Shown: positions 41,855 through 58,500, counted from the stretch's first letter. The stretch: 64,000 nucleotides of DNA from an uncultured Candidatus Rokubacteria bacterium (GCA_963708025.1 CAVPSB010000025.1:128001-192000), one strand, 5' to 3'. Numbers and translations are program-made. Notes: generated by a model not told the origin, from the letters alone.

Positions 41855-44002
41855 ATGCGGACGCTCGGCGAGCTGCTCTCGGAGATCCCCCGCTACCAGC
41901 CCGGGGCCGACCTGGACCTGGTCCGGCGGGCCTACGCGTTCTCCGAGGAGGTCCACGACGGCCAGCGTCGGATGTCCGGCGAGCCCTACCACGTCCACCC
42001 CCTGGAGGTCGCCGGCCTCCTGGTGGACTTCAAGATGGACGTCACCACGGTCACCGCCGGCCTCCTCCACGACGTCCTCGAGGACACCGCCACCAGCAAG
42101 GACATCCTGGCCGAGCGCTTCGGCGCCGACATCGCCGAGCTGGTGGATGGCGTGACCAAGATCGGCAAGCTCGCGTTCGCCAGCCGCGAGGAGCGCCAGG
42201 CGGAGAACTTCCGCAAGATGCTGGTCGCGATGGCCCGGGACATCCGGGTCCTCATGATCAAGCTGGCCGACCGGCTCCACAACATGCGCACGCTCGAGTA
42301 CCTGCCGAGCGACAAGCGGCGCAAGATCGCCCAGGAGACCCTCGACATCTACGCGCCGCTCGCCCACCGGCTCGGCATGGCCAAGGTCAAGGGCGAGCTG
42401 GAGGACCTCGCGCTGAGGGTGCTTCACCCCGAGGCGTATGACGATCTCCAGCGGCGCGTGGCCAAGCGGCGGCTCGAGCGCGAAGCCGAGATCAACCAGG
42501 TCATCGCGATCCTGTCGAAGAAGCTCGGCGAGGTGGGCATCCAGGCCCAGATCACCGGGCGGCCCAAGCACTTCTTCTCGATCTTCAAGAAGATGCAGCA
42601 GGGCCGGGAGTTCGACGAGATCTACGACCTGACCGCCGTCCGGCTCCTGGCCCCGACGGTCCGCGACTGCTACGGCGCGCTGGGCGTCGTCCACTCCCTC
42701 TGGAAGCCGGTCCCCGGGCGGTTCAAGGACTTCATCGCGATCCCGAAGTCCAACATGTACCAGTCGCTCCATACCACCGTGATCGGCCCCAAGGGCGACC
42801 CGATCGAGATCCAGATCCGGACGCCCGAGATGCACCGGATCGCCGATGAGGGGATCGCGGCCCACTGGCTCTACAAGGAGAAGCGCGGCAAGGACGGCTT
42901 CGACCAGGCCTTCGTCTGGCTGCGCCAGCTCCTCGAGTGGCAGCAGGAGATGAAGGACCCCCGGGAGTTCATGGAGACCGTCAAGGTCGACCTGTTCCCG
43001 GACGAGGTCTACGTCTTCACGCCCAAGGGCGACGTGAAGGCGCTCCCCGAGGGCTCTACCCCGATCGACTTCGCCTACGCGATCCACACCGAGGTGGGCA
43101 ACCACTGCGTCGGCGCCCGGGTGAACGGCAAGCTGGTGCCGCTCCGGCAGCCGCTCCGCCAGGGCGACATCGTGGAGGTCGTGACCTCCCCGACCCAGAA
43201 GCCGTCCCGCGACTGGCTGAAGGTCGTCCGCTCGACCCGGGCCCGCTCGAAGGTCAAGCAGTGGCTCCGGACCGAGGAGCGGGCGCGCTCGGTGATGATG
43301 GGGCGGGAGCTGCTCGAGCGCGAGGCCAAGAAGCACCGGCTGGCCCCGACCACGCTGCTGGAGTCCGCCGAGATGGCGAAGCTGGCGGTGGAGCACGGCT
43401 ACTCGACCGTCGACGATCTCCTGGCCGGGCTCGGTTACGGCAAGACGTCGGTCCAGACCGTGATCGCGCGCTTCCTCCCGGCCGAGACCCAGGCCGAGAC
43501 GAAGCCCGAGCCGGCGCGACCCACGAAGGCGCTGGCCCGGTCCCGCGGGGAGTCCGGCATCACGCTCAAGGGCGTGAACGACGTCCTGGCCCGCTTCGCG
43601 AAGTGCTGCACGCCGGTGCCCGGCGACCCGATCGTCGGCTTCATCACGCGGGGCCGGGGCATCACCGTCCACACCCGGGACTGCCCGAACCTGGCGGCGG
43701 GCGCGGTGGAAACCGAGCGCACCGTCGAGGTCGAGTGGGACATCGCCGAGAAGCTCCCGCTACCGGTCAAGATCGCCGTGTTCATCGGCCGCGACCGGCC
43801 CGGCCTGCTCGCCGAGATCTCGACCGCCATCTCCTCCCGGCAGGTCAACATCGTCAAGGCGGAGGTGACGGTCACCGAGGATCGGAAGGGCATCAACCAC
43901 TTCACGGTGGAGGTGGCCGACCTCGATCAGCTCCAGGGCGTGATGGGGGCGATCGGCGCGATCAAGGACGTGATAGGCGTCGAACGAGTCCGTGGTCTGT
44001 AG
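41855..44002 (+). CDS. rel: bifunctional (p)ppGpp synthetase/hydrolase (long RSH)
   Basis: H.GQ.R.SGEPY, LLHDVLEDT, KLADRLHNMRT, GRPKH, YQSLHTT, EIQIRT, TGS, AKCC.PVPGD and ACT domains. Confidence 0.95.
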   Translation: MRTLGELLSEIPRYQPGADLDLVRRAYAFSEEVHDGQRRMSGEPYHVHPLEVAGLLVDFKMDVTTVTAGLLHDVLEDTATSKDILAERFGADIAELVDGVTKIGKLAFASREERQAENFRKMLVAMARDIRVLMIKLADRLHNMRTLEYLPSDKRRKIAQETLDIYAPLAHRLGMAKVKGELEDLALRVLHPEAYDDLQRRVAKRRLEREAEINQVIAILSKKLGEVGIQAQITGRPKHFFSIFKKMQQGREFDEIYDLTAVRLLAPTVRDCYGALGVVHSLWKPVPGRFKDFIAIPKSNMYQSLHTTVIGPKGDPIEIQIRTPEMHRIADEGIAAHWLYKEKRGKDGFDQAFVWLRQLLEWQQEMKDPREFMETVKVDLFPDEVYVFTPKGDVKALPEGSTPIDFAYAIHTEVGNHCVGARVNGKLVPLRQPLRQGDIVEVVTSPTQKPSRDWLKVVRSTRARSKVKQWLRTEERARSVMMGRELLEREAKKHRLAPTTLLESAEMAKLAVEHGYSTVDDLLAGLGYGKTSVQTVIARFLPAETQAETKPEPARPTKALARSRGESGITLKGVNDVLARFAKCCTPVPGDPIVGFITRGRGITVHTRDCPNLAAGAVETERTVEVEWDIAEKLPLPVKIAVFIGRDRPGLLAEISTAISSRQVNIVKAEVTVTEDRKGINHFTVEVADLDQLQGVMGAIGAIKDVIGVERVRGL

Positions 44003-44124
44003 CCGGGCCGATGACCGTCGCATCCCGTCGTCCTCGGGCGGCGCCCATCCTCGGCGTACCAGGGCGTACGCCTCCGGTGGGCGCCGCCCTGCGTCCTAGG
44101 GCTGCTCGGTCCTCGACCCGGCTA
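44000..44124 (+). repeat. REP-like family A element
   Basis: TAGCCGGGCCGA...GGCGTAC-cagggc-GTACGCC...CCCTGCGTCCTAG...TCGACCCGGCTA. Confidence 0.8.
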
Positions 44125-44161
44125 TCCACATTCACGACATAGCTGAGACGCACGCCCTCCG

Positions 44162-45019
44162 ATGATGCGGGACGTGGTGACGGTGGCCCCCGGCGTGCGG
44201 ATCCATTACCGGAGGCTCGGGAGCGGCCCCGGGATGGTCCTCCTGCACGGGTTCCCCGAGACGGGGCACATGTGGCGGAAGGTCATGCAGGCCCTCGCCG
44301 ATCGGTTCACCGTCGTCGCCCCCGATCTCCGCGGCTACGGCGACTCCGATCGCCCGGCCGGCGGCTACGACAAGCGGACGATGGCCGCCGACGTCGCCGA
44401 GCTGATCCGCGTCCTCGGGCTGGCGCCGGTCATGCTGGTCGGCCACGATCGGGGCGCCAGGGTCGCCCATCGCTTCGCGCTCGACCACCCGGACCTGCTC
44501 ACCCGGCTGGTCCTCCTCGACATCGCGCCCACCTACGACGTCTTCGCCCAGCTCGACCAGCAGCGGGTGCGGCGCATCTGGCACTGGCTCTTCCACCAGG
44601 TCCCGGACCTGCCGGAGGCGCTGACCGCGGGCCGCGAGGACATCTACCTCCGCCACTTCTACCGGGCCCTGGCGTACAACCCGGCCGCGATCGAGGAGGA
44701 GGCCATCCAGGAGTACGTGCGCTGCTTCCGCCAGCCCGGCGCCATGCGGGCGGCCTTCGAGGACTATCGGGCGGGGGGGTCCGTCGACCTCGAGCACGAC
44801 GCCGGCGACCGCCAGCGCAAGGTGGCCGCGCCGACGCTCGTTCTCTGGGGCCAGAGCCGCACGTCCCAGGCGGCCGACATGCTCGGCGCCTGGCAGGCGC
44901 GGTGCGAGCGCGTCGAGGGCTTCCCCGTCCCCGACTGCGGCCACTTCATCCCGGAAGAGCAGCCGTCGGTGGTCGTCCGCGCCGTCCTCCGGTTCGCCGC
45001 CGAGGGGGCGGCGGCGTGA
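44162..45019 (+). CDS. alpha/beta hydrolase, haloacetate/fluoroacetate dehalogenase-like
   Basis: LLHGFPET, DLRGYG, GHDRGARV, WHWLF, EDYRA, CGHFIPEE. Confidence 0.85.
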   Translation: MMRDVVTVAPGVRIHYRRLGSGPGMVLLHGFPETGHMWRKVMQALADRFTVVAPDLRGYGDSDRPAGGYDKRTMAADVAELIRVLGLAPVMLVGHDRGARVAHRFALDHPDLLTRLVLLDIAPTYDVFAQLDQQRVRRIWHWLFHQVPDLPEALTAGREDIYLRHFYRALAYNPAAIEEEAIQEYVRCFRQPGAMRAAFEDYRAGGSVDLEHDAGDRQRKVAAPTLVLWGQSRTSQAADMLGAWQARCERVEGFPVPDCGHFIPEEQPSVVVRAVLRFAAEGAAA

Positions 45020-45035
45020 ACAGGGGGAGCCGGGC

Positions 45036-45416
45036 GTGAAGCTGACGCGGCGGCAGTTCGAGGCGCTGGTGGATCGGGCCGTCACCCGCCTGCCGCGACG
45101 CTTCCGGGAGAAGCTCGAGAACATCGCCGTGGTGGTCGAGGACTGGGCGGACGAGGCGACGCTGGCCGAGATGGAGATCGAGCCGCCCGACACCCTCTAC
45201 GGGCTCTACCGCGGCACCGACCTGACCCGCCGGGATTCGTTCTACGGGGGCGTGCTGCCCGACGTGGTCACCATCTACCAGGGGCCCATCCAGGAGGACT
45301 GCGACTCGATCGAGGAGATGGAAGCCCTGGTCGTGGACACCGTCGTGCACGAGATCGGCCACTACTTCGGTCTCGACGACGACCGCCTCGAGGAGCTGGA
45401 GTCCGACCAACCCTAA
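45036..45416 (+). CDS. minimal zincin metallopeptidase (DUF1025-like)
   Basis: LYGLYRG, LPD..TIYQGP, TVVHEIGHYFG. Confidence 0.9.
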   Translation: MKLTRRQFEALVDRAVTRLPRRFREKLENIAVVVEDWADEATLAEMEIEPPDTLYGLYRGTDLTRRDSFYGGVLPDVVTIYQGPIQEDCDSIEEMEALVVDTVVHEIGHYFGLDDDRLEELESDQP

Positions 45417-45417
45417 G

Positions 45418-45525
45418 GCCTGCCGCGAAATAACTGTCCCAGGTCATCGGTCGGGCTGCTCAATGATTCCCTCCCACGCCGGCAGGAAACCGAAGGAGAT
45501 CTGGTCCACTTATTTCGCCGCAGGC
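45418..45525. mobile_element. MITE-like element between convergent genes
   Basis: GCCTGCCGCGAAATAA / TTATTTCGCCGCAGGC (15/16 IR), flanked by CTAAG at 45413-45417 and 45525-45529. Confidence 0.7.
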
Positions 45526-47201
45526 TAAGTCCCGAGCGGACGCGGCGTCTCGCCGGCCAGATCGACCAGCCACCGCCGGAGCCGGCGGTGACCCCGCAGG
45601 CGGCGCAGGTACCCGGCTTCGTCGGTTCCGCCCTTCGCCCGGATCGCCTCCAGCAGCGCGCGGCGCTCGCGCGGCCGCCAGGTCTCGAGGTCGGGGATCA
45701 GCGCCAGCACCAGGGCCAGCCGCTCGAGGGCGAGCCGCTCCGGCGGCGGCCACGCCCGCCAGCCGCCCGCGCCCAGCGCCCGTGCCACCCGCGCCGCCAG
45801 GCCGGCCGGACTCGCGTGGCGCCCGGCCGCCGCGGCCGCGGCCCGAAGCCCGAGCCGCCGCACGTCGAGCGCCGTCGCCTGGCCAGGGGCCAGCGTGGCG
45901 ATCATGCCGGCCTCGGCGAGCTGCGCCAGCGTCGCCCGTGGTGAGCGGTAGCCGGGCTCGGCGCGGATCCGCCGCCGCTCGCTCACCGCGAGGCGCGCGA
46001 TGTCCGGCCGTTCCGAGCGGAAGCCGAGCTTGTCGTAGAACCAGAAGGCCCCCGAGTCCAGCGCCTCGTCGTTCTGATAGCCGATCTGGTACCGGCTCAG
46101 CGAGACGACCCGGACGCCGAGGTGCTGGCCGAGGAACGCGAGGAGCCGGACGAAGATGAAGGCCGACTCGCCCTGACGGAAGGTCTCGAAGACGTTGTAG
46201 GCCAGCTCCACGCGCTCGAAGAGGAGCGAGGCGTCGCCATAGCCGACCGGCAGGCCGTTCTTGAGAACCAGGTACCCGTAGTGAGCCCGCAGCGGGAGCC
46301 GGTGTGCCGGCCGCAGGCCGAACCAGGCGATCTGGACGCCGCGCCCGAGATCCGCCACGCGCACGTCGGCCGGCTCGGCGAAGTTGAAGGCGTGGACCTC
46401 GCGGTAACGGACGAGGACCGCCGCCCGGGCGGCGTCGAGGAGCGCCGTCGCCTCGTCCCGTCCGGCCTGGCGGACCGCGACCGGCGCGCCCGGGAGCCAC
46501 CGCCGGAGCCGCCCGCGCACCCGCCGGAGCGGGCCGCGGTGGAAGAAGATCCGCGGCGCCGGCAGCCGGAGCCGCGTGCGCGAGGCGGGGCCGTCGCCGA
46601 GCCGCCAGCGCGTCCGCACGGCCATCGCGTCGTACGCCGCCTGCCGCGCGCCGGCGTCGGGGCCACCCGCGAGGCCGCCCAGGATCGCGGCGAGGTCGCT
46701 GCCCGGGCCCGGCCCCCGGACCGCGGCGAGCCACTCGCGGTAGGGCACGCCCACCTCCACCAGCGCCTCCTCGGCCGCCAGCCCGGAGAGCCAGGGCAGG
46801 AGCGTGCCCACCGCCGTCTCGGTCTCGGCATCCTGCCAGTCCAGCTCGACGGCGTCGGGAAAGCGCGTGGCGAGCCACCGGGCTGCCGCGTACGACAGCG
46901 GACAGTAGAGGGTGGTGCCGGCCATCCCGGTCTCGTCGAGCCGCTCGGGGTGGCCAAGGGCCGCGACGCGGGCGGGGATCGCCGCGAGCGCCTCCTCCAC
47001 CGCGCCGAGCGTCCCGGGCCCGTCCGGGTACGCCCGGAGGAAGCACAGGGCCTCGTGGTAGCGGAGCAGCAGGTCGGGCTCCCGGATCCGGCCACGGGCC
47101 AGCGCGGCTAGCAGCTCGCGCCGGGTCGCACGCTCCGCCGGGCCGAAGCCATTCTTGGTGCGCTCCAGGAGCGCGACCAGCTCGTCGATCCGGGCCGGCA
47201 A
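45525..47201 (-). CDS. hypothetical protein with GNAT-like C-terminal motif; start uncertain (frame open to 47351)
   Basis: Long ORF with coding-like composition; EALDSGAFWFYDKLGFR resembles the GNAT A..FY.KLGF motif. Confidence 0.65.
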   Translation of the reverse strand: MPARIDELVALLERTKNGFGPAERATRRELLAALARGRIREPDLLLRYHEALCFLRAYPDGPGTLGAVEEALAAIPARVAALGHPERLDETGMAGTTLYCPLSYAAARWLATRFPDAVELDWQDAETETAVGTLLPWLSGLAAEEALVEVGVPYREWLAAVRGPGPGSDLAAILGGLAGGPDAGARQAAYDAMAVRTRWRLGDGPASRTRLRLPAPRIFFHRGPLRRVRGRLRRWLPGAPVAVRQAGRDEATALLDAARAAVLVRYREVHAFNFAEPADVRVADLGRGVQIAWFGLRPAHRLPLRAHYGYLVLKNGLPVGYGDASLLFERVELAYNVFETFRQGESAFIFVRLLAFLGQHLGVRVVSLSRYQIGYQNDEALDSGAFWFYDKLGFRSERPDIARLAVSERRRIRAEPGYRSPRATLAQLAEAGMIATLAPGQATALDVRRLGLRAAAAAAGRHASPAGLAARVARALGAGGWRAWPPPERLALERLALVLALIPDLETWRPRERRALLEAIRAKGGTDEAGYLRRLRGHRRLRRWLVDLAGETPRPLGT

Positions 47202-47335
47202 CGGGGGCTTCGGCGGACCCGCTCGCCAGTGCCGGAGCCGGGCCCCGGGGAGGCCGCGGCCGTTAACGCGACGCCGTTTCCGCGACGACGGTTTGACCTG
47301 CGACAACCGTCGTCCCAATCCGGAACGTTTTTTAC

Positions 47336-47400
47336 TTGACACGAGTTTCACTTGCCTCTAGTGTTTCAGCGACTGCTGAAAATGACGGAACAAGTGAAAC
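47336..47400 (+). promoter_or_regulatory. sigma70 promoter with nested inverted repeats (probable autoregulatory operator)
   Basis: TTGACA 47336-47341, 17 nt, TAGTGT 47359-47364; GTTTCACTTG (47345)/CAAGTGAAAC (47391) and inner TTTCAGC-gact-GCTGAAA. Confidence 0.7.
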
Positions 47401-47401
47401 C

Positions 47402-48448
47402 ATGGTCCGTATCAATGAAATCAAGAAGGACGCGGCCCACCGCTTGCGAGAGCTCTTTCCCCGTGCTCAGGATTGGCAGGAGCTTATGGACTCCCGTGTC
47501 GGGGAACAGACGGTCGATCTGCTCGTCCGGTTCCGGATGGGAGCGGAGGTCAAGACGCTGATCTGCGAGGCGCGCCCGGTGGGGCAGCCCCGGTACATCC
47601 GGGAGATGCTGACGCGCCTGCGAGGGCTCCGGGAGCAGGTGCCCGGCGCCTATCCCGTGACCGTGGCGCCGTACATCAGCCCGCAGTCGGCGGCGCTCGT
47701 CCGCCAGAACGGCTGTGGCTACCTGGACCTGTCCGGGAACTGCTACCTGGCCTTCGACAACGTGCTGATCGAGAAGGAGGGCAAGCCGAACGTCCGCCCG
47801 AGCAACCGCCCCCTCAAGACGCTCTTCGCGCCCCGGGCGACGCGCATCGTGCGCGCGCTGCTCGTGGACCGCGACCGGAGCTGGCGGCTCGAGGAGCTGG
47901 GCCGGGCCGCCCAGGTGAGCCTCGGCCACGCGCACAACGTGGTCAAGCGGCTCGAGGACCTCGAGTGGGTGGAGCGAAGCTCGGCCGGCCGGTTCCGGCT
48001 GCAGAAGCCCGGGGAATTGCTCGAGGCCTGGCGCGACGAGTACACCTATCGCGCCAACGGGATGGCCGCCTTCGTGGCGCCGGTGGGCGACAAGCGGCGG
48101 ATCATGGAGAGCCTGGCGCGCCAGGCGGAGGCGCTGGGGTTTCCCTACGCGTTCAGCCTGCACGCCGGGGTCTCCCTCGTCGGACCCCAGGTGCGGGTCC
48201 CCACCGTCCACTGCTACGTCGGCGGCGACCCCGAGGCCATGGCGCGCGCCCTGGGACTCCAGCCCGTGGAAGGCGAGGGGACGGTCTATCTCATGACTCC
48301 GTACGATCAGGGCGTGTTCTTCGCGCCGGTCGTGAAGAGCGGCCTCCGGGTCGTCAGCCTGCCCCAGCTCTACGTGGACCTCTACCACTACGAGCGCCGG
48401 GGCCGGGAGCAGGCCGACAAGCTGCGCCGGGACGCGCTGGGCTTCTAG
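47402..48448 (+). CDS. AbiEi (AbiEi_2/DUF2186-like) type IV antitoxin family regulator
   Basis: APYISP...GYLDLSGNCYL, LFAPRATRIVRALL, wHTH (LEELGRAAQVSLGHAHNVVKRL), ELLEAW, VVSLPQLYVDL....RG.EQA. Confidence 0.8.
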   Translation: MVRINEIKKDAAHRLRELFPRAQDWQELMDSRVGEQTVDLLVRFRMGAEVKTLICEARPVGQPRYIREMLTRLRGLREQVPGAYPVTVAPYISPQSAALVRQNGCGYLDLSGNCYLAFDNVLIEKEGKPNVRPSNRPLKTLFAPRATRIVRALLVDRDRSWRLEELGRAAQVSLGHAHNVVKRLEDLEWVERSSAGRFRLQKPGELLEAWRDEYTYRANGMAAFVAPVGDKRRIMESLARQAEALGFPYAFSLHAGVSLVGPQVRVPTVHCYVGGDPEAMARALGLQPVEGEGTVYLMTPYDQGVFFAPVVKSGLRVVSLPQLYVDLYHYERRGREQADKLRRDALGF

Positions 48449-48524
48449 GGGATCTGATCGGCCCCGCGCCGGCGTGCGCGAATCGGGGCGCGCGCGGCGG
48501 GGCCCGGGAAGGGGGTGAGAACTG

Positions 48525-48560
48525 ATGGCGACCAAGAAGAAGGCCAAGAAGAAGAAGTAG
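48525..48560 (+). CDS. Lys-rich micro-ORF 1 (MATKKKAKKKK)
   Basis: SD AAGGGGGTGA, then ATG...TAG. Confidence 0.7.
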   Translation: MATKKKAKKKK

Positions 48561-48635
48561 AGCCGTGCGACGGCGGAGCGGCCAGCCCGGCCGGCTCCGT
48601 CACTCCGATTCCACGGGAGGGAGGTGAGAGACAGA

Positions 48636-48671
48636 GTGGCGAAGAAGAAGGCGGCGAAGAAGAAGAAGTAG
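48636..48671 (+). CDS. Lys-rich micro-ORF 2 (MAKKKAAKKKK)
   Basis: SD AGGGAGGTGA, then GTG...TAG; followed by a 12-bp hairpin. Confidence 0.7.
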   Translation: MAKKKAAKKKK

Positions 48672-48746
48672 CCCGGTGTTACGGCGGGGAGGGGGTACAG
48701 CCCCTCCCCGCCTCCCCGGTGCTCCCGAAGGGAGGTGAGAGACAGA

Positions 48747-48785
48747 GTGGCGAAGAAGAAGGCCGCGAAGAAGAAGAAGAAGTAG
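48747..48785 (+). CDS. Lys-rich micro-ORF 3 (MAKKKAAKKKKK)
   Basis: SD AGGGAGGTGA, then GTG...TAG; synonymous GCG/GCC difference from copy 2. Confidence 0.7.
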   Translation: MAKKKAAKKKKK

Positions 48786-48841
48786 TGTGGGATCGGGCCG
48801 GGGGCGACTCGAACCCCCGCCCGGCACTTACTCCCGAGATT

Positions 48842-48878
48842 CGGCCGCCGAGGACGGTTGCCACCTCCTCGGCGGCCG
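48842..48878. terminator. 13-bp stem hairpin between the micro-ORF array and convergent rpmB
   Basis: CGGCCGCCGAGGA / TCCTCGGCGGCCG; no clear U tract. Confidence 0.5.
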
Positions 48879-48944
48879 GTCGTTTCGGGCCCCTGACCGT
48901 CGCGATCTCCATGTCGGCCGTGGCCCGGTCGTTTTTCGGTCCGG

Positions 48945-49136
48945 TCACACCGCCTTGGCGACCTTGCCGGAGCGCAAGCAGCGGGTGCACACCCGGACCC
49001 GGCGGGTCCGGCCGTTCACGACCGCCCGGACGTTTGCCAGGTTCGGCAGCCATCGCCGCCTGGAGACGTTGTGAGCGTGGCTGATCTGGTTACCGACCAC
49101 GGGGCCCTTGCCGCAGTAATCGCAGCGCTGCGCCAT
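48945..49136 (-). CDS. rpmB: 50S ribosomal protein L28 (Zn-binding type)
   Basis: MAQRCDYCGKGPVVGNQISHAHNVSRRRWLPNL...VCTRCLRSGKV. Confidence 0.97.
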   Translation of the reverse strand: MAQRCDYCGKGPVVGNQISHAHNVSRRRWLPNLANVRAVVNGRTRRVRVCTRCLRSGKVAKAV

Positions 49137-49172
49137 GCGCGACTCCTCAAAAGAAATGACGCCCCTTCTGCC

Positions 49173-49816
49173 GCGGGGCGACGCACTTCTATACCACGCT
49201 GGGAGCCGCGAAACAAGCGGGGATTTCGCGGCCAGCCCGCAACCCGGCGTCCTGGCGCGGCTTTTCGATGCGGATCGGCGAATCGCCCGCCTCAGGGGAA
49301 CCCCGGATGCCTGCGGCGAGGGGGGAGTGGGCCGATGGAACGGCGTGTGGCCGGACTGGTCACCAGCCGCAGGATGTGTTACCAACAGGCGTGCCGGTGA
49401 CGGAGCTGCTGGAGTGAACGGACAGCCAGACGAGTCGAAGCTGGACGTCGTGCGGGCCTACCTGAGCCGGGCATTTCCCGGGCACGACCAGCTCGACCAC
49501 CTGAGCCTTCGCCGCCGTGGGGTCCTCTTCCAGATCCTGAGCCGTGGGCGGCTCGTGCATCGGCTCGTCGTGCCCGAGACGTTCCTGGCGGACCACCCGG
49601 CATCGGAGATCGCAGAGCTGCTCGAGGCCCACCACATCGCGACCGTCCTCGGCCAGGCGGCCTGGCGCATCGTGGTCCTGGCGGACGACGGTCCCAGCAT
49701 CCAGGAAGAACCGACGTAGCGGCTCCGGCGCGGTGTTCGAGCACCGTCCAGTCGGTGCCGGCCGACCCCTCGGGATGACGATGGGGCTTGCTGCGGGGCG
49801 ACGCACTTCTATACCA
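49173..49816. repeat. 24-bp direct repeats (49173-49196 and 49793-49816) flanking a small ORF
   Basis: GCGGGGCGACGCACTTCTATACCA occurs twice. Confidence 0.85.
49414..49719 (+). CDS. hypothetical protein (101 aa)
   Basis: GTG start, globular-looking translation, coding-like codon usage. Confidence 0.6.
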   Translation: MNGQPDESKLDVVRAYLSRAFPGHDQLDHLSLRRRGVLFQILSRGRLVHRLVVPETFLADHPASEIAELLEAHHIATVLGQAAWRIVVLADDGPSIQEEPT

Positions 49817-49826
49817 TGAACGCGCG

Positions 49827-51992
49827 GTGACACAAGCCCGCCCGCCTGGCCGGTCCCCCGAAGTCCTCGCGGCGCCGGCCTCCCCGAGCGCCCCCCCCGC
49901 GATCCGGGACAGCGAGGGCGGACTCGGCATGGCGCTCCAGTACCTGAAGGGCGTCGGCCCCCAGCGGGCCCGCCTCCTCGAGCGGATCGGGCTGCGCACC
50001 GTCGGTGACGCCCTGGACCGGTTCCCCCGCCGCTACGAGGACCGCCGCGAGGTGGTGCCGTTCCGGAAGCTCCGGGTCGGGGAGGCCCAGCCGACCGGTG
50101 GGACGGTCGTGGGCGTCTCGGCCCCGCCCCGCGGCCGGTCGCGCGTCCCCCTGACGGTCCTCTTCCGGGACCAGTCCGGCTTCTTCTCGGGTCTCTGGTT
50201 CAACCAGCCGTACCTGGCGCAGCTCTTCAAGCGCGGCCAGCGCGTGTTCCTCTACGGCAAGGTCGTCCCGGGCCGCGGCCGGGGCCCGCTCCAGATGCAG
50301 AACGCGGAGTTCGAGATCGTGGAGGACGACGAAGAGGCCTCCCTTCACATGGGGCGCATCGTGCCGGTCTACGGCCTCACCGAGGGGCTCACCCAGCGGC
50401 CGATGCGGAGCCTGCTCCACCGGATCGTCGAGCGTCACGCGCGGGAGGTCACCGACGCGCTGCCGGAGGCGCTGCGCCGGCACCGCGATCTCCTGCCGGC
50501 CGCCGAGGCATACCGGGCCATCCACTTCCCGGACGCGCTGGAGGCGGCCGAGGCCGCGCGCCGTCGCTTCGTCTTCGAGGACTTCCTCCTGCTCCAGGTC
50601 GGGCTCGCCATCCGGCGCCGTCGGGAGGCCGCCCGGCCCGGCCACACCATCGCGCCGCCGGGCCGGCTGGTGGCGCGCCTCCTGGAAGGCCTCCCGTTCA
50701 CGCTGACGGCCGCCCAGCGGCGCGTGTGGGAGGAGATCCGGGCGGACCTCGCGCGGCCGACGCCGATGAACCGCCTGCTGCAGGGCGACGTCGGCTCCGG
50801 GAAGACCGTCGTGGCGGTCATGGCGCTGCTGACCGCCGTCGAGGCGGGGTTCCAGGGCGTCCTCATGGCGCCGACCGAGATCCTGGCCGAGCAGCATTTC
50901 GGCACCGTGCAGCGCCTCGTCGAGCCGCTCGGCCTGCCGCTGGCGCTGCTCAGCTCCGGCCAGAAGGGCAAGGCGCGCGAGGCGGCGCTGGCCGCCGTGG
51001 CCAGCGGGGCCGCGCCGCTCGTGGTCGGCACCCATGCCCTCATCCAGGACGCGGTCCTCTTCCACCGGCTCGGCCTGGCCGTCGTCGACGAGCAGCACCG
51101 CTTCGGCGTCCTTCAGCGGGCGACGCTGCGGGCGAAGGGCCGGCACCCCGACGTGCTGGTCATGACCGCGACGCCGATCCCCCGCACGCTCGCCCTCACG
51201 CTCTACGGGGACCTCGACGTCTCCGTGCTCGACGAGCTGCCGCCGGGCCGCCAGCGCATCACCACGGCCTGGCGCTCCGAGGCCAAGCGGCGGGAGATCT
51301 ACGACTTCATCCGGAAGGAGCTGGAGCAGGGCCGCCAGGCCTACGTCGTCTATCCGCTGGTGGAGGAGACGGAAGCATCCGACCTGAAGGCGGCGACGGC
51401 GATGGCCGACCGCCTCGCCCGGGAAGTGTTCCCCGACCGCCGGGTGGGCCTGATCCACGGCCGCCTGCCCTTCGACGTCAAGGACACCGTCATGCGCGCG
51501 TTCAAGGCCGGCGAGCTCGACGTGCTGGTCGCCACCACCGTGATCGAGGTCGGCATCGACGTGGCGAACGCCAGCGTCATGCTGATCGAGCACGCCGAGC
51601 GCTTCGGCCTCGCCCAGCTCCACCAGCTCCGCGGGCGGGTCGGGCGGGGCCCCGCCCGCTCCTACTGCATCCTGCTCGCCTCGGGGCTCCTCTCGGACGA
51701 GGCGCAGCGGCGGCTCCAGGCGATGTGCGAGACGCAGGACGGCTTCCGCATCGCCGAGGCCGACCTGGAGATCCGCGGCCCGGGCGAGTTCTTCGGAACC
51801 CGCCAGGCGGGGCTGCCCGAGTTCCGGGCGGCGAACCTGCTGACCGACGCCCGCCTGCTCGAGGAGGCCCGCCAGGACGCGCTCGCCCTCGTCGAGCGCG
51901 ATCCCGGCCTGCGCCTTCCGGAGCACCACGCCCTCCGTGACGCGCTGGTCAGCCGCTGGCGCGAGAAGCTCGACCTGGCCTCGGTGGGCTAA
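49827..51992 (+). CDS. recG: ATP-dependent DNA helicase RecG (start uncertain)
   Basis: LKGVGP, MNRLLQGDVGSGKT, MAPTEILAEQH, DEQHRFG, MTATPIPRTL, QLHQLRGRVGRG. Confidence 0.96.
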   Translation: MTQARPPGRSPEVLAAPASPSAPPAIRDSEGGLGMALQYLKGVGPQRARLLERIGLRTVGDALDRFPRRYEDRREVVPFRKLRVGEAQPTGGTVVGVSAPPRGRSRVPLTVLFRDQSGFFSGLWFNQPYLAQLFKRGQRVFLYGKVVPGRGRGPLQMQNAEFEIVEDDEEASLHMGRIVPVYGLTEGLTQRPMRSLLHRIVERHAREVTDALPEALRRHRDLLPAAEAYRAIHFPDALEAAEAARRRFVFEDFLLLQVGLAIRRRREAARPGHTIAPPGRLVARLLEGLPFTLTAAQRRVWEEIRADLARPTPMNRLLQGDVGSGKTVVAVMALLTAVEAGFQGVLMAPTEILAEQHFGTVQRLVEPLGLPLALLSSGQKGKAREAALAAVASGAAPLVVGTHALIQDAVLFHRLGLAVVDEQHRFGVLQRATLRAKGRHPDVLVMTATPIPRTLALTLYGDLDVSVLDELPPGRQRITTAWRSEAKRREIYDFIRKELEQGRQAYVVYPLVEETEASDLKAATAMADRLAREVFPDRRVGLIHGRLPFDVKDTVMRAFKAGELDVLVATTVIEVGIDVANASVMLIEHAERFGLAQLHQLRGRVGRGPARSYCILLASGLLSDEAQRRLQAMCETQDGFRIAEADLEIRGPGEFFGTRQAGLPEFRAANLLTDARLLEEARQDALALVERDPGLRLPEHHALRDALVSRWREKLDLASVG

Positions 51993-51993
51993 C

Positions 51994-52551
51994 ATGCGGG
52001 TCATCGGAGGCCAGGATCGGGGCCGGCGCCTGCGGTCACCCCGGGGCTCGCGGACGCGGCCGACGGCGGACCGGATGCGCGTCACGCTCTTCGACATCCT
52101 GGGGCCGGCGATCGACGGCATGCGGGTGCTCGACCTGTTCGCCGGGACCGGCGCGGTCGGGATCGAGGCGCTCTCCCGCGGCGCCGGGCGCGCGGTCTTC
52201 GTCGAGCGCGACCGCGATGCGCTGCGCGCGCTCCGCGCCAACCTGGCCGCCTTGCGCCTCGGGCGCGAGCAGGCCCGCGTGGTGGCGGGCGATGCCCTCG
52301 CCATCCTGCCGGCGCTCCCGGCCAGCGAGCTCGCCTTCGACCTGGTCTTCCTCGATCCGCCGTACGCGGGGGGACTGGCCGCCCGCGCGCTGGCCGCGCT
52401 CGCCGGGAGCCCGCTCCTGCGACCGGGGACGCGCGTCGTCGTGCAGCACTCGGCCCGGGCGCCGCTCCCGGTGCCGCCGGGACTCCGGGTGCCGCGCCCG
52501 GCGCGCGCTTTCGGCGATACCGCCTTGACTTTCCTGGAGGCGGAAGGGTAG
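51994..52551 (+). CDS. rsmD: 16S rRNA m2G966 methyltransferase
   Basis: MRVIGG..RGR.L, TRPT.DR, LDLFAGTG..GIEALSRG, FLDPPY. Confidence 0.93.
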   Translation: MRVIGGQDRGRRLRSPRGSRTRPTADRMRVTLFDILGPAIDGMRVLDLFAGTGAVGIEALSRGAGRAVFVERDRDALRALRANLAALRLGREQARVVAGDALAILPALPASELAFDLVFLDPPYAGGLAARALAALAGSPLLRPGTRVVVQHSARAPLPVPPGLRVPRPARAFGDTALTFLEAEG

Positions 52552-52641
52552 ACTCCGGGCGGTTCGAGGCCCGCGTGGCAGATCACGAGCACCCGGAAGA
52601 CGGCCCCGTCCTCCACGTCCCCGCCTGAGAGCGCCGAAAGC

Positions 52642-53127
52642 GTGGCGACCCGCGCGGTCTATCCGGGGTCTTTCGACCCGCTCACCAACGGGCACCTGGA
52701 CCTCATCGAGCGCAGCCTCCGGATCTTCGACGAGCTGATCGTCGCCGTGGTCACCAACCCGGCCAAGACGGCGCTGTTCACCGACCCCGAGCGGGTGGAG
52801 ATGATCCGGGAGGCGACGCGCAGCCTCCGGCACATCGAGATCATGGTCTTCGAGGGGCTGCTGGTGGACTTCGTGACGAAGGTCGGCGCCCGCGCGATCA
52901 TCCGGGGGCTCCGGGCCGTCTCGGACTTCGAGTACGAGTTCCAGATGGCCCTCATGAACCGGAAGCTCCGCGAGGAGGTCGAGACGGTCTTCCTGATGCC
53001 GCACGAGGCCTACTCCTACATCTCCTCGCGCCTGATCAAGGAGGTCGCCGGGTACGGCGGCTCCGTCACCGGCCTGGTGCCGCCGGGGGTGGAGAAGCGG
53101 CTGGCCACCAAGTTCCCCCGCCGCTAG
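52642..53127 (+). CDS. coaD: pantetheine-phosphate adenylyltransferase
   Basis: YPGSFDPLTNGHLD, IRGLRAVSDFEYE, ISS.LIKEVA. Confidence 0.96.
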   Translation: MATRAVYPGSFDPLTNGHLDLIERSLRIFDELIVAVVTNPAKTALFTDPERVEMIREATRSLRHIEIMVFEGLLVDFVTKVGARAIIRGLRAVSDFEYEFQMALMNRKLREEVETVFLMPHEAYSYISSRLIKEVAGYGGSVTGLVPPGVEKRLATKFPRR

Positions 53128-53130
53128 CGC

Positions 53131-53270
53131 GCGCCGTGCCGATACCCGTCGCATCGCGTCGTTGTTCGGCGGCCTCGGGGGGTCGTCGCCGATCCTCGGC
53201 GTACTCGGAGTACGCCTGCGGTCGGCGACTCCCTGCGTCCGTAGCGGCTGCTCGGGTCTCGGCCCGGCGC
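53131..53270 (+). repeat. REP-like family A element
   Basis: GCGCCGTGCCGA...GGCGTAC-tcgga-GTACGCC...GCGACTCCCTGCGTCC...TCGGCCCGGCGC. Confidence 0.85.
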
Positions 53271-53316
53271 AGGGGGCGGTAATGCGACCGATGTTCGTCG
53301 GGAAGAAAGCGGTGGC

Positions 53317-54504
53317 GTGCTGAGTGAGCGTGCGCGGCGCCTGGCGCCGTCTCCCACCCTCGCCATCACCGCCCGGGCGCGCGCCCTGCGCGCGCAGGGC
53401 GTCAACGTGATCTCGTTCGGCGCCGGGGAGCCGGACTTCGACACGCCCGAGCGGGTGAAGGCGGCGGCCGTCCGGGCCATCGCCGAGGGGCAGACCAAGT
53501 ACACCGACACCCCCGGGATCCCCGAGCTGCGGGCCGCCGTGTGCGCGAAGCTCAAGCGCGACAACGGCCTGGACTACGAGCCGGCCGACGTCATCGTGTC
53601 CGTCGGCGCCAAGCACTCCCTCTACAACATCTGCTCCGTGCTGGTTGGCCCCGGCGACGAGGTGCTGATTCCCGCGCCCTACTGGGTCAGCTACACCGAG
53701 CAGGTGCGGCTCTGCGAGGGGACGCCGGTGCCGGTGCCGACCGACGAGGCCCGCGGCTTCCAGCTCGACCTCGCCGCCCTCCGCTCGGCGGTCACGCCCC
53801 GCACGAAGCTCCTGATCCTCAACACGCCCAACAACCCGACCGGCGCCGTCTTCCCGCGGGAGGACCTCCAGGCGGTGGCCACCCTCGCCCTGGAGCGCGG
53901 CTTCCGGGTGGTGGCCGACGAGTGCTACGACGCCCTCTCCTACGAGGGGCGCGTCCCGTCGATCGCGGCCCTCGGCCCCGAGATCAAGGCCCGCACCCTG
54001 GTCGTCAACACGTGCTCCAAGGCGTACGCGATGACCGGCTGGCGGATCGGCTACGCGGCGGGGCCGCGCGAGATCGTCCGCGCGATGGCCGACTTCCAGA
54101 GCCAGTGCACGTCGAACCCCGCGTCGATGGCCCAGTGGGGCGCCGTCGAGGCGCTGACCGGTCCCCAGGACGACGTGGCGAAGATGGCCGGGGAGTTCGA
54201 CCGGCGGCGGCGGGCGATCGTCGAGGGCCTGAACCGGATCCCCGGCGTCCGCTGCCGGATGCCCCAGGGCGCGTTCTACGCGTTCCCCGACGTCTCGGGG
54301 CTCTTCGGCCAGCGATGGCGTGACCGGCCGCTCGCCAGTTCGGGCGACGTCACGGCCTGCTGGCTGGACGAGGCGCGGGTCGCCGTGGTGCCCGGCGCCG
54401 ACTTCGGCTCCGACCGCCACGTCCGGCTGTCGTACGCGTGCGGCATCGAGACGATCCGCGAGGGCCTGCGCCGGATCGAGGCGGTGTGCTCCGGCCTCTT
54501 CTAG
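53317..54504 (+). CDS. class I/II PLP aminotransferase (aspartate aminotransferase-like)
   Basis: GEPDFDTP, PYWVSY, NTPNNPTG, DECY, SKAYAMTGWRIGY. Confidence 0.92.
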   Translation: MLSERARRLAPSPTLAITARARALRAQGVNVISFGAGEPDFDTPERVKAAAVRAIAEGQTKYTDTPGIPELRAAVCAKLKRDNGLDYEPADVIVSVGAKHSLYNICSVLVGPGDEVLIPAPYWVSYTEQVRLCEGTPVPVPTDEARGFQLDLAALRSAVTPRTKLLILNTPNNPTGAVFPREDLQAVATLALERGFRVVADECYDALSYEGRVPSIAALGPEIKARTLVVNTCSKAYAMTGWRIGYAAGPREIVRAMADFQSQCTSNPASMAQWGAVEALTGPQDDVAKMAGEFDRRRRAIVEGLNRIPGVRCRMPQGAFYAFPDVSGLFGQRWRDRPLASSGDVTACWLDEARVAVVPGADFGSDRHVRLSYACGIETIREGLRRIEAVCSGLF

Positions 54505-54505
54505 G

Positions 54506-55522
54506 ATGACCGACCCGAGCTGGGAAGCCGCGGTGGCCCGGGCGGCCGACGCCCGAGTGATGCTCGTGATGGGCGAGACCGATGCCGGCAAGACGAGCTT
54601 CACGACGTTCCTGGCCGGGGCCCTCCTGGAGCGGGGCGCCTCGGTGGGCGTCGTCGATGCGGACCTCGGGCAGTCCGACATCGGTCCCCCCACCACGGTG
54701 GGCCTCGGCCGCCTGCGGCTCCCGGTCGAGCGGCTCGAGGACGCGGAGGTCGTGGGGCTCTACTTCGTCGGCGCCACGTCGCCCCAGGGCCACCTGCTGC
54801 CGACCGTCGCCGGGACGCGGGCCATGGTCCAGAAGGCGCTGCGGCTCGGGTTCGACCGCGTCATCGTCGATACCTCGGGCCTCGTCCAGGGCGAGCTGGG
54901 CCGCCTGCTGAAGCAGCACAAGATCGACCTGGTCGAGCCCGACCTGGTCCTGGTCCTCCAGCGGAGCGGCGAGTGCGAGCACATCCTCCGCCCCTACGCC
55001 GCCGGCGACCGGCCGACCGTCCTGCGGCTCGCCCCCGCCGCGGCCGGCCGGCGGCGCTCGCAGGAAGAGCGCCGCCAGCACCGCGAGCGGAGCCTGCAGG
55101 CCTACCTCGCCGGCAGCCGGGCGGTCTCGCTCGACCTCGGCCGCGTGATCCTCCGCCAGCCCGCGCTCTACGTCGGCCAGCCCCTGCCGCCCCGGCAGGT
55201 GGAGGACCTGGCGGTCGTGCTCGACGACATGGTGCTGTGGGCGGAGCGGCGGGGAAACGAGCTGGTCGTGGTCACGCCCGATCCCCTCAAGGAGCCGCAG
55301 GTCCGCCAGATCCAGAAGCGCCACGAGGATCTCGGGCTCGCCAACTACTCGCTCGACGACTTCCAGGGCGTGCTGGCGGGTCTCGACGACGCCCGGCGGG
55401 AGACCCTGGGGCTGGGCGTCGTCCGGTCGATCGACTTCGCCAAGCAGACGATGGTGGTCGAGACGCCGGTGCCGGAGACGGAGATCGCCGCGGTGCGGCT
55501 CGGCCGCCACAAGCTCCGCTGA
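54506..55522 (+). CDS. Clp1-family polynucleotide 5'-hydroxyl kinase
   Basis: GETDAGKT P-loop, DADLGQSDIGPP, DTSG, R.S.EERR..RE lid. Confidence 0.82.
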   Translation: MTDPSWEAAVARAADARVMLVMGETDAGKTSFTTFLAGALLERGASVGVVDADLGQSDIGPPTTVGLGRLRLPVERLEDAEVVGLYFVGATSPQGHLLPTVAGTRAMVQKALRLGFDRVIVDTSGLVQGELGRLLKQHKIDLVEPDLVLVLQRSGECEHILRPYAAGDRPTVLRLAPAAAGRRRSQEERRQHRERSLQAYLAGSRAVSLDLGRVILRQPALYVGQPLPPRQVEDLAVVLDDMVLWAERRGNELVVVTPDPLKEPQVRQIQKRHEDLGLANYSLDDFQGVLAGLDDARRETLGLGVVRSIDFAKQTMVVETPVPETEIAAVRLGRHKLR

Positions 55523-55530
55523 CGCGGAGG

Positions 55531-58500
55531 CTACTCGACGGCGTACAGCGTGACCTGCGCCCTGTCGGCGTGGCGGGAGAGCACGGCGAGTCGATCGCCC
55601 GCGAGGGCCAGCTCGTGCGGCCGGTCGGATCCCGGCGGGAGCGGCAGCCGCCGGATCCGGGGCGCCGACAGGTCGACGAGCACCGCCTCGGTGCCGATCC
55701 AGGCCGCCAGGCGGCCGCCGGCGAGCACGGGGCCGCTGAGGGAGCCCGGGATCCAGCCGATGCAGTGCCGGTCGCCGCTCTCCGGATCGATCCGCCACAG
55801 CCAGGTGCGCGGGCCGTCCCACGACAGGCAGACGAAGCCGGTGCCGGCCGGCGTGGGGCCGAGACACTGGACGTCGAGCTCCGAGGTCAGGAGGTGCCGG
55901 CTGCCTCCCGGAGCGAGCAGCCAGACGTCCGAGCGCGGGTGGAACGCCGGTGACACGATCCACTGGACCAGCTGCGCCAGCCGCCCGAGCCGCCGGAGCG
56001 GAAGCCGCGGAGTTTCCGTGTAGCTCGCGTCCAGCGCCAGGGCGGCGCCGGGGGCGGTGATGTACAGGAGATCCTCGGGATCGACCCGGTCGGGCAGGGG
56101 CAGCCGGGTCTCCCCGACCACGTGGCCGCCGCCCGTTCCCGTGATCAGCACGAGCTCCGCAGGCTCGAAGGAGAGTGCCAGGGCCTGCCACGCGCCGGTG
56201 GCCGGGTCGATCGCGAGGTCGCGGGTGTCGATCGAGGGGAGGGGACGGCGCCAGACCGGGATCCGCGGGTCGTCCGCGTTCACCAGCTGGAGCTCCCGTC
56301 CGCCATCGGAGCCGGCCAGAGCCAGCAGGCGGTCGTCGGAGAGGAAGCGGATGGCCGCCCCCTCGATCTCGCGAGAGCCGCCGGAGAACGCCCCCACCCG
56401 GTTGGCCGGGACTCGCCTCCCGAGCGGTCCGGTCAAGCCCACGACCGTGTAGCGGGTCCCGGAGGGCGAGAGACGGAGGCGCCTCGCGCTCACGCCGAGC
56501 GGCGTCCGGCCGAGAAGCCGCAGCGAGCCCCCGGTCTCGTCGAGTCGCGCGGCGGTGCCGAGGAAAGGGTCCCGTCCGAAGCGGTCGAGGAACCAGTGGG
56601 ACCCGAGCCCCACCGGCAGGACGGCGAGGAGCGCCAGCCCCGCGGCCACCGCGCGGGCGCGGGCCCGCGGCCGGGTGGCGAGCATGGCGGCCAGGCCGAG
56701 CAGGGCCACGGTAAAGGCCGGCGGTCCCATCGCGGCCTGGTGAAGGCGCACGGCGCCGCCTCCCGCCGCCGCCGTCGCGAGCAGGGGCAGCGCGGTGACC
56801 AGGGCGATCAGCCCGAGGCCGATGCCGGCCGCCCACTCTCCGGCGCGGCTCCGCTCGCCACCCCGGATCCGTGCCAGAGCGAGGGCCAGGGCCAGCCCGC
56901 CCGTGATCGCGGCGGCCGCCGGCGATGCGCCGAGCGGCATGGCGTACCACGTCGCCCAGGGTCCGAGGAGCGCCGCCAGCGCCGCGGCGAGGGTCACCGC
57001 GCCGTAGGCGGCGAGCGGGGCCGGCCCCGGTCGGACGAGCAGCACGCTGCCGAGCACCAGCGCGGCCAGGGCATTCGACGCCCCGTACCCGAAGCAGAGG
57101 CCGAGCAGCGTCAGGGCGACGAGGAGCGCCGGGTGGTGGACGAGACCGACGGGGGCGCGCCCGAGCTGCCCGTCGACCGCGTCGAGCACCGACTGGACGG
57201 TGCCGACGTCCTCGGGACGGAGCGGCACCGACCAGGTCGCGCCGGACCGGCTGCTGCCGGTGAGGGAGGCCGAGCCGGTGATCCCGACCTGCACGCGCAG
57301 ATCGGTGAGCTCGCCGTACGGCACGGTCTCGGTCGCCGGCCGGGCGCCCAGGATCGCCGGATCGGCAGGGGTCCCGGCCGGGATCCCGCTGACGCGCTGG
57401 AGCCGGTTGGCGTGGAGGACGAGGAACCGGCCGGGCTTTCGCGAGGCGAACGCGCGGGGCAGCTCGAGCGCCGCCGCGGGCGCGCCGGCCGCGTCCCGGA
57501 TGGCCTGGAGGCGACGCGCGAGGCTCGGATGCGAGAGCGTTCGCTCGGCGGCGATGGCCCAGCGACGCGGCAGCCGGGCGAGCCGGTGGAGCTTCACGAG
57601 CGCCCGGCCCACGGCGTCCGAGTCGCCGCACAGCTCCACCGCCCGGCGGTCGCTCCAGCTCTCGTGGGCCTTGTGGGCGGCGGCCCTGAGGAAGAACGCC
57701 CCGAACACGGCCACCCCCCAGCCGAGCCCGATGAGGGACGCCGAATCGGGGAGTCTCGCCTGCAGCAGCGGAACCCCGGGAACCCCGGCGAGGATCGCCA
57801 GCCAGGTGGCCCCGCGCAACCGGGCGAGCCGCCTGCGGTCGTAGTGCTCGAGATGCGCGACCTCGTGCGCGAAGATCGCCGCGACCTCGTCGGGCTGCAA
57901 CAGCTCGAGCAGCGGGTCGGTGATCAGCACCGCGGACCCGCGGCTGGACGCGAGCGCGAAGGCGTTGGCGAGCCGGCCGCCGGGTGTCCCCGCCCGGTAG
58001 AGGAGCGGCGGGGCGATGCGCGAGCGGGCGAGGATCGCCGCGAACCGGGGCGCGAGATCGGCCCGGTCGAGCGGCGTCGCGCCCAGCAGCCACAGTAAGA
58101 CGGCCGAGTAGCGCGCCTCCCAGGCGAGCAGCAGCGCGGCGAGGCCGACGATCGCCGGCCAGCGGGCCGGCCCCTCCGCGGGCACGTAGCTCGGGGCGCA
58201 CGCGAGGAGCAGCCAGAAGCCGAGGAGTCCGAGCGCGAGCCGCACGGTGTGGGCGACGTACGCGGGAAAGCGCCACGTCTCCCCGTAGAGCGTCCGGCGC
58301 ATGGGGAACCCGCCGGCGAGGAGGGCGAGGAGCATCAGGCCGTACGCCCACAGCACCCAGGGCGTCACCAGGATGCCCTCGGCGACCATGACCACAGCCG
58401 CGACCAGCGTGAGGCGAGACCGGTGCTCGGTCAGGCGCTCCGGCAGGGCGGCGTCGTCCCCGAGGCGGACGAGCGCGCGGCCCCACCACCAGGCCAGCAG

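Follow-up and report, generated by a model that had tools for sequence, protein, structure and literature searches.

We describe an array of three micro-genes in a stretch of 64,000 nucleotides (nt) from the genome of an uncultured Candidatus Rokubacteria bacterium of the Methylomirabilota (GCA_963708025.1, CAVPSB010000025.1:128001-192000; this whole stretch is hereafter the window, and is part of contig C25). The three open reading frames (ORFs) span 11-12 codons, encode almost pure-lysine products, and lie directly downstream of a gene for an AbiEi_2-type regulator, on the same strand. On balance, we consider it probable that they represent translated polycation micro-genes, co-transcribed with an exapted AbiEi-type regulator; their peptides may act on nucleic acids. 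The regulator gene and the array, in which each ORF is preceded by a Shine-Dalgarno (SD) site, are arranged as follows:

47402..48448, + strand: AbiEi_2-type regulator gene, 348 residues (PF09952, fold matches, conservation)
48510..48560, + strand: micro-gene 1; SD site AGGGGGTGA at 48510-48518, ATG at 48525, product MATKKKAKKKK, TAG at 48558-48560
48620..48671, + strand: micro-gene 2; SD site GGAGGTGA at 48620-48627, GTG at 48636, product MAKKKAAKKKK, TAG at 48669-48671
48731..48785, + strand: micro-gene 3; SD site GGGAGGTGA at 48731-48739, GTG at 48747, product MAKKKAAKKKKK, TAG at 48783-48785

An oligolysine array in the window

The first-pass annotation of the window had reported three units composed of an SD site, a start codon, an oligolysine ORF, a TAG stop, and a GC-rich hairpin, with starts at 48525, 48636, and 48747, along with 35 nt common to units 2 and 3 and followed by a GCG/GCC difference. 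Both descriptions hold: every component is present in the sequence, and positions 48618-48652 are identical to 48729-48763, with the GCG/GCC difference next. Unit identity at an offset of 111 nt is 0.62, 0.68, and 0.53. The 111-nt spacing between starts, also reported, is exact in the window but is not conserved, as start-to-start distances among the micro-ORFs of relatives range from 69 to 150 nt; we thus interpret it as the product of a recent tandem duplication in the host lineage, and not as a conserved ruler. Similarly, all lysine codons of the array are indeed AAG, but this is unremarkable in a genome where AAG makes up 96.0% of lysine codons (3585 long ORFs of the host genome, used throughout as the codon and stop background).

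Across the host genome (8.17 megabases, 71.2% G+C), a six-frame scan identified only 5 places with at least 7 lysines per 11 residues, 4 of which correspond to the three array ORFs and to a fourth copy at C19:322347-322382. No other oligolysine occurs in the six-frame translation, nor does any longer lysine-rich protein, and given this genome-wide rarity the array is far beyond chance. The fifth lysine-dense place, a small frame located outside the window (C25:274705-274764, MQKEKKKKPKQEKPKPEKK), contains Glu and Pro and is hence a different kind of sequence. The objection that the triplication could be an assembly artefact, raised along with the initial description, is unlikely to apply, since two further assemblies (L022 and L023) likewise hold three copies and contigs from RNA libraries (X16 and X18, detailed below) bridge the units.

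Conservation across the Rokubacteriales

Relatives were represented by 80 loci (L021-L100) retrieved via the upstream regulator protein and named Candidatus Rokubacteria, Rokuibacteriota, or Methylomirabilota. A looser, translation-based scan detected lysine-rich micro-ORFs directly 3' of the regulator gene, on the same strand, in 80/80 loci, so that a comparison downstream of regulator homologues, as had been proposed initially, finds the micro-ORFs kept in 1-3 copies. As in the window, they lie between the orthologous regulator gene and a convergent rpmB. Most loci (70) hold two copies, two hold three, and 8 hold one, the latter including loci truncated by contig ends or from which an extra copy was possibly missed by the filter. 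A second set of 30 regulator loci, overlapping the first largely in species, agrees with this result, with micro-ORFs in 30/30. A strict DNA pattern was matched in 30 of 41 relatives' genomes, including 20/20 in family f1 and 7/17 in family f2, with 0 matches in a reversed control; the 41 genomes, like those of the regulator tally given below, include the unpublished G038, G069, G080, and G119, on which alone no claim is based. The same strict pattern was found in none of the five non-Rokubacteriales genomes of the class, nor was any lysine-rich ORF detected within ~1.5 kilobases of rpmB at five non-Rokubacteriales loci (0/5).

A Rokubacteria-type locus was also observed on contigs titled otherwise (L041, L048, L049, L052, L055, L083, L088, and L099), under the names Nitrosocosmicus, Deferrimicrobiaceae, Acidoferrum, Binatia, Limnocylindria, Eisenbacteria, and Hyphomicrobiaceae. 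Among five such assemblies checked, 4 have further matches to the micro-gene pattern on one or more other contigs, those of L052 and L099 giving a single match. Tandem as well as solo micro-genes are carried by all five, which therefore provide no out-group. These may reflect misleading assembly titles rather than single stray contigs.

Peptide-level selection and probable translation

Residue composition was counted after the initiator Met over 102 distinct micro-ORF sequences, and yielded 874 K, 268 A, 92 R, 69 G, 39 T, 15 V, 10 P, 7 S, and 1 H. Asp, Glu, Asn, and Gln are entirely missing, even though AAG to GAG is a single transition that keeps the purine run. Arginine is mostly encoded by CGN codons (59/92), which lie at least two changes away from AAG and break this run, while the share of AGR among arginine codons (36% in micro-ORFs vs ~6% in the genome) fits one-step changes. 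Micro-ORF lengths range from 10 to 24 residues and vary by whole codons, with the first copy of family f2 usually reaching 22-24 residues (e.g. MPKRKKAVKKGGKKKATKKGKRK), and the wobble positions of Ala codons vary. Across 154 copies, the start codon (ATG in 133, GTG in 21), the SD spacing, and an in-frame stop are preserved without exception. These patterns of substitution indicate that the micro-ORFs evolve as peptide-coding sequence, under selection for a short and purely cationic peptide, and on such comparative grounds their translation is very likely. Hence, where the locus output had initially been proposed to be either the peptides or processed RNA units, conservation and codon pattern make the peptide the best-supported reading, whereas an RNA-only product fits the codons poorly.

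Stop codons in the same 154 copies are TAG (89), TAA (64), and TGA (1), compared to a genome background of 63% TGA, 32% TAG, and 4% TAA. TAA is thus ~tenfold enriched and TGA nearly missing in the micro-ORFs of L021-L100, a bias that may reflect high expression, a termination context following Lys-Lys, or the avoidance of GTGA-like SD mimics.

Four 23- and 24-residue variants were scanned against NCBIfam and Pfam and had no match, even at Pfam E-values up to 10, although such queries are too short and too low in complexity for this to weigh much; the 10-13-residue peptides fall below the 20-residue minimum of these family scans. A lack of a small ribosomal protein, or of polyamine synthesis, was considered as a further clue to function and rejected, as the host genome has bS21, bL36, and genes of the spermidine-synthase family.

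Operon structure and RNA evidence

Upstream of the regulator gene, a promoter-like site was identified:

47328..47364, + strand: operon promoter-like site; T-tract, TTGACA at 47336-47341, 17-nt spacer with TTTCA, TAGTGT at 47359-47364, 37 nt before the ATG

This promoter layout, with TTTCA in the spacer and TTTC just past the -10 element, was found in 60/60 loci (L021-L080), upstream of the start at distances of 34-49 nt, most often 37 or 49. Two TTTCA motifs are visible at 47342-47372, one in the promoter spacer and a second (GTTTCA) just 3' of the -10 element, about 21 nt apart, and the pair recurs in 60/60 loci; these are candidate operator half-sites for the regulator. Only 9 sites in the genome fit the promoter pattern, two of which are located at micro-gene units and others before genes including cold-shock-like and thrS-like ones. 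The gap between the regulator stop and ORF1 is mostly 24-34 nt, and no -35/-10-like motif was detected within 300 nt 5' of ORF1 in any of the 80 loci. Taken together, the short gap, the lack of an internal promoter-like motif, and the conserved operon promoter suggest that the array is the distal part of the regulator operon.

Co-transcription of regulator and array finds weak support in contigs assembled from four metatranscriptome libraries. Two of these contigs link the 3' end of the regulator gene to ORF1 (X15, 48053-48557, 11 differences; X17, 48133-48560, 7 differences), while ORF1 is linked to ORF2 by X16 (48514-48668, 1 difference) and again by X17 (48532-48639, 2 differences). X18 (48701-48842, 6 differences) covers spacer 2, ORF3, and the following hairpin, and positions 48843-48870 are left nearly uncovered. 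Summed depths of RNA contigs over AAG runs (up to 262) include lysine-rich sequences from other organisms and were not used.

The upstream AbiEi_2-type regulator

The upstream gene had been assigned to the AbiEi family, and can be considered a true AbiEi_2 homologue based on PF09952, clear paralogues, and its C-terminal fold. The PF09952 match of the regulator itself is marginal (22 bits vs a cut-off of 21, residues 199-342) and is accompanied by a weak MarR-type helix-turn-helix match; the regulator's paralogues score 44.2 and 34.5 bits against PF09952, and an NCBIfam scan of the regulator returned no match. An AlphaFold model based on 41 sequences (predicted local distance difference test of 90.2) suggests an organization in three domains. 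Residues ~3-127 are predicted to adopt a PD-(D/E)XK nuclease fold (AF1548, Z 11.3; NucS, Foldseek E-value 6.8e-5; MspJI), followed by a predicted winged helix at residues ~135-213 (Z about 9) and a nucleotidyltransferase-like fold at residues ~228-348 (ANT(2''), Z 10.5; MenT1, Z 10.4). In the model, this C-terminal domain also aligns to the Streptococcus agalactiae AbiEi structure 6y8q (Z 8.5, root-mean-square deviation 2.8, 103 residues aligned). Across the 41 sequences Asp39 is invariant while the (D/E)-x-K motif is not conserved, and the N-terminal domain may serve for DNA binding or oligomerisation rather than cutting. His270 and Tyr272 are conserved on the strand where nucleotidyltransferases have D-x-D, hence the C-terminal domain appears to be related to the toxin fold but inactive. 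The regulator is basic, with an isoelectric point of about 9.5, and 31 orthologues range from 9.1 to 9.7 with a net charge of +6 to +13.

The regulator was detected in 156/201 genomes of the phylum, as a single copy, including 16/16 in family f1 and 121/125 in family f2, and nearly all Rokubacteriales have one orthologue with at least 53% identity. In addition, the order regulator, micro-ORFs, rpmB, and recG is maintained in 16/16 tandem loci. This single-copy, near-universal, and syntenic distribution indicates a core gene of the order and not a mobile toxin-antitoxin module. A mobile AbiE module, as the locus might have been taken to be, is further at odds with the existence of a solo micro-gene copy without an AbiEi gene.

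Regulator paralogues, 34-41% identical and found in Rokubacteriales and other orders, are followed within a few bases 3' by ORFs of 250-305 residues. Of 8 such partners, 3 reach the PF08843 (AbiEii) cut-off, one is just under it, and one matches NTP_transf_8 below cut-off; the GGW motif is present in 8/8, and D-x-D in 5 within the 70 residues compared. No lysine-rich micro-ORF was found at 17 loci of paralogues or distant homologues (0/17). Since paralogues precede AbiEii-like nucleotidyltransferase genes, the micro-ORFs occupy the toxin slot, as the first-pass annotation had claimed: only micro-ORFs separate the regulator from the convergent rpmB here, and no AbiEii gene was detected downstream of the regulator in the window or in any of the 80 relatives' loci. 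PF08843 matches of the host genome are located on other contigs.

On the other side of the regulator gene, a 608-residue ORF (45525-47351, - strand) without any Pfam or NCBIfam family lies between a Zincin_1 gene (45036-45416) and the regulator. In L016, the one relative showing this junction, the zincin gene ends ~120 nt before the regulator gene, so that the 608-residue ORF looks like an insertion in the host lineage.

Hairpins, rpmB, and the solo copy

Hairpins and the downstream boundary of the array are distributed as follows:

48574..48599, + strand: GC-rich hairpin past micro-gene 1; f1 relatives have equivalents with a conserved GTGCAG-type loop and varying stems
48683..48712, + strand: perfect 12-base-pair hairpin past micro-gene 2, loop GTACAG
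48789..48828, + strand: conserved, stable hairpin past the last micro-gene, present here in nearly all relatives
48842..48878, no strand assigned: perfect 13-base-pair inverted repeat between array and rpmB, followed by GTCGTTT; probably a two-way terminator
48915..48941, + strand: terminator-like hairpin and T-run, immediately before the rpmB stop codon
48945..49136, - strand: rpmB (ribosomal protein L28; PF00830, 83.8 bits), convergent, forming the array boundary and syntenic in relatives

Spacers between ORFs contain a hairpin with a GTGCAG-type loop in family f1, and are short and unstructured in family f2. For the hairpin past the last ORF, f1 stems are quite different in sequence with pairing kept, and rare f2 variants also keep pairing. 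The hairpins are probably transcript-end and stabilising structures. RNAalifold returned no consensus structure from a MAFFT alignment of 31 post-array hairpins, as MAFFT had set the f1 and f2 stems out of register; per-sequence folds were used instead. In family f2 (L038-L100), the hairpin is found 10-25 nt past the last micro-ORF and is almost invariant, with a G-rich, SD-like 5' arm and a CCTCCCACC-like 3' arm, and is often followed by GGSACTCAT; the flanks are divergent. A search for tRNA and transfer-messenger RNA over 40000-56000 found none, a T-arm-like element at 48800-48825 being merely the hairpin.

The fourth copy, at C19:322347-322382, encodes MAKKKAAKKKK and is free-standing, without an AbiEi gene. 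Solo units were identified in 17 loci from two families, with a promoter composed of a T-rich element, CTTGACA, 17 nt, and a TAGCAT-like element, then a 60-75-nt leader, a strong SD site, and the ORF. A GC hairpin and T-run come last and look like a plain terminator. Downstream of the unit, family f1 has an EamA-type transporter gene, L001 and L160 have a convergent nrdR, and L002 and L159 have still other genes. Because this neighbour differs between families, the solo ORF is unlikely to be a leader for it.

Proposed function and alternative explanations

Under the explanation we favour, micro-genes of 10-24 codons found Rokubacteriales-wide would encode short polycations in which Lys, Ala, Arg, Gly, and Thr make up nearly all residues. 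At the present locus, they would belong to an operon transcribed from the conserved, strong promoter at 47328-47364 and headed by the exapted AbiEi_2-type DNA-binding protein, which probably autoregulates this promoter. Each micro-gene would be translated from its own near-perfect SD site, and the GC hairpins between and after cistrons would probably stabilise or end the transcript. The resulting peptides could be abundant polycations acting on nucleic acids, whether in the nucleoid, on RNA, or at the ribosome, with the tandem copies possibly providing a regulated supply and the solo copy a constitutive one.

Several considerations weigh against this explanation. The relatives are kin, and counts of loci and genomes are therefore not independent events. 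Contigs from the metatranscriptome libraries carry no information on strand, ends, or levels, and may include DNA carry-over. Given that the whole block is syntenic, adjacency alone is no proof of a functional tie between regulator and peptides. The target proposed for the peptides is putative, and the host, which has spermidine-synthase-family genes, bS21, and bL36, leaves no obvious gap for them to fill. Finally, the invariance of the f2 hairpin in sequence, and not in structure alone, is unexplained by a model centred on the peptides.

A special case of the favoured explanation, which we regard as unlikely, is that the micro-genes encode a very small ribosome-bound protein, which would be this lineage's own version of the tiny, basic ribosomal proteins known from other phyla. 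Synteny with rpmB, strong SD sites, several copies, consensus promoters that are rare in the genome, and the stop usage typical of highly expressed genes, with TAA up about tenfold, would all be expected from such a protein. However, rpmB is convergent and outside the transcript, and the five non-Rokubacteriales loci lack a lysine-rich ORF near rpmB (0/5). The four longer variants match no NCBIfam or Pfam family, bS21 and bL36 are already present, and a variation of 10-24 residues in length, along with the variation in sequence, exceeds that of a usual ribosomal protein.

Another candidate, to which we assign a similarly low probability, is a toxin-antitoxin-like or defence module in which the oligolysine peptide, or its translation, replaced AbiEii and is controlled or neutralised by the AbiEi-like protein. 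The position of the micro-ORFs in the exact slot of AbiEii-like genes (8/8 partners with GGW, 3 at the PF08843 cut-off) fits this proposal, as do the conserved operon promoter with repeated TTTCA, as for an autorepressor, and the predicted match of the C-terminal domain to AbiEi from S. agalactiae (6y8q, Z 8.5). A preprint describes the AbiEi C-terminal domain as binding the electropositive face of the toxin (10.64898/2026.01.19.700257), and oligolysine is extremely electropositive. On the other hand, the regulator is single-copy and syntenic, with a presence of 16/16 in f1 and 121/125 in f2 that is unlike patchy mobile modules, and 17 loci have a solo micro-gene with its own strong promoter and no AbiEi gene. 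The regulator is itself basic in 31 orthologues, and AAG is the common lysine codon.

A bolder version, also improbable in our assessment, would be an AbiE operon domesticated as a core chromosomal system, whose former antitoxin, a DNA-binding protein, senses genetically encoded oligolysine and regulates its supply, the peptide being at once cargo and regulator ligand. The C-terminal domain of the regulator would then dock an electropositive partner, and the ribosomally made, polyamine-like oligolysine would condense or protect nucleic acids, or tune ribosomes.

Alternatively, RNA could be the product, with (AAG)n purine stretches and hairpins forming a protein-binding or sponge RNA, with a possible partner such as an Hfq-like or CsrA-like protein, and with frames that are incidental or serve ribosome loading. 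Each unit does combine a single-stranded purine run with a hairpin, and these hairpins are conserved, up to sequence invariance for the last-ORF hairpin in f2. Nevertheless, none of the 154 copies has lost its start, its SD spacing, or its in-frame stop, CGN in 59/92 arginine codons breaks the purine run while the purine-rich GAG is never found, and f2 spacers between two ORFs are short and without hairpins. A permissive Rfam search over 46000-51000 returned 4 matches at chance level, with gathering scores of 50-100; the best reached 20.3 bits where 60 would be required. We thus rate an RNA product as quite improbable, and below the alternatives above. Lysine-sensing leader peptides, or attenuators, for a downstream gene are least probable of all: lysine-codon-rich ORFs each followed by a hairpin, and an f1 solo copy upstream of an EamA-type transporter gene, would suit such a role, but, in line with the first-pass annotation, the array has only the convergent rpmB downstream, and the solo copy has a neighbour that is not conserved and a hairpin with T-run that is plainly terminator-like.

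Comparison with known systems

AbiE operons, which encode AbiEi and AbiEii, are described as type IV toxin-antitoxin systems (PMC3985639), and as reclassified to type VII in a preprint (10.64898/2026.01.19.700257). The accessible parts of the AbiE literature describe only nucleotidyltransferase partners. Similar to AbiE, the locus reported here starts with an AbiEi_2-family gene with a predicted winged helix and AbiEi-type C-terminal domain. It is organized as an operon in which little sequence separates this gene from the next cistron, and its conserved promoter contains repeated motifs. The same phylum also has true AbiEi-AbiEii pairs, the antitoxins of which are 34-41% identical to the regulator. 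Unlike AbiE, the locus has no nucleotidyltransferase toxin but 1-3 oligolysine micro-genes instead, and its regulator belongs to the vertically inherited core genes of the order and has an extra, predicted PD-(D/E)XK-like N-terminal domain. It may thus illustrate a fate of toxin-antitoxin operons after toxin loss, in which the antitoxin persists as a core gene and a new cistron takes the place of the toxin.

Lysine- and alanine-rich "histone H1-like" proteins, or tails of bacterial nucleoid proteins, include chlamydial Hc2 (PF07382) and AlgP. The micro-gene products share with these a composition of K and A with some G, T, P, and R and no acidic residues, and by analogy would be expected to behave as nucleic-acid-binding polycations. 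They differ in being free-standing peptides of 10-24 residues instead of tails, or of proteins that exceed 100 residues, and the four variants scanned have no Pfam match. Very small basic ribosomal proteins (bS22, bL37, bTHX, and eL41, besides bL36 and bS21) are likewise tiny, very basic, and associated with strong expression signals, and the locus neighbours rpmB, itself a ribosomal protein gene. Unlike these proteins, the peptides have no family match and are shorter and of lower complexity.

The mini-ORF of identical codons also recalls CreT-type RNA toxins, which consist of an SD site, a mini-ORF of rare codons, and a stem-loop. Both share an SD site, a start, a few identical codons, a stop, and a hairpin, which had led to a CreT-like sequestration of tRNA-Lys being put forward for the array. 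Here however, AAG is the commonest lysine codon (96%) and selection appears to act on the peptide; with a common codon there is no rare tRNA to trap, and a CreT-like trap is therefore unlikely.

In the literature accessible to our search, no description of oligolysine micro-genes was found. Genes of 10-13 codons are invisible to gene callers, and an order-wide family with very strong expression signals, present at three or four copies in each genome, has thus been overlooked in hundreds of genomes from soil and groundwater. Provided that the peptides are made, they would rank among the smallest conserved bacterial gene products, and would constitute a genetically encoded polycation with regulable dosage. 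If the domesticated AbiE operon proposed above were true, an 11-residue peptide would rank among the smallest functional gene products known, and AbiEi-family proteins would gain a new class of partner. Among known kinds, the related ones are small basic nucleic-acid-binding proteins for the peptides and orphaned antitoxin regulators for the upstream protein.

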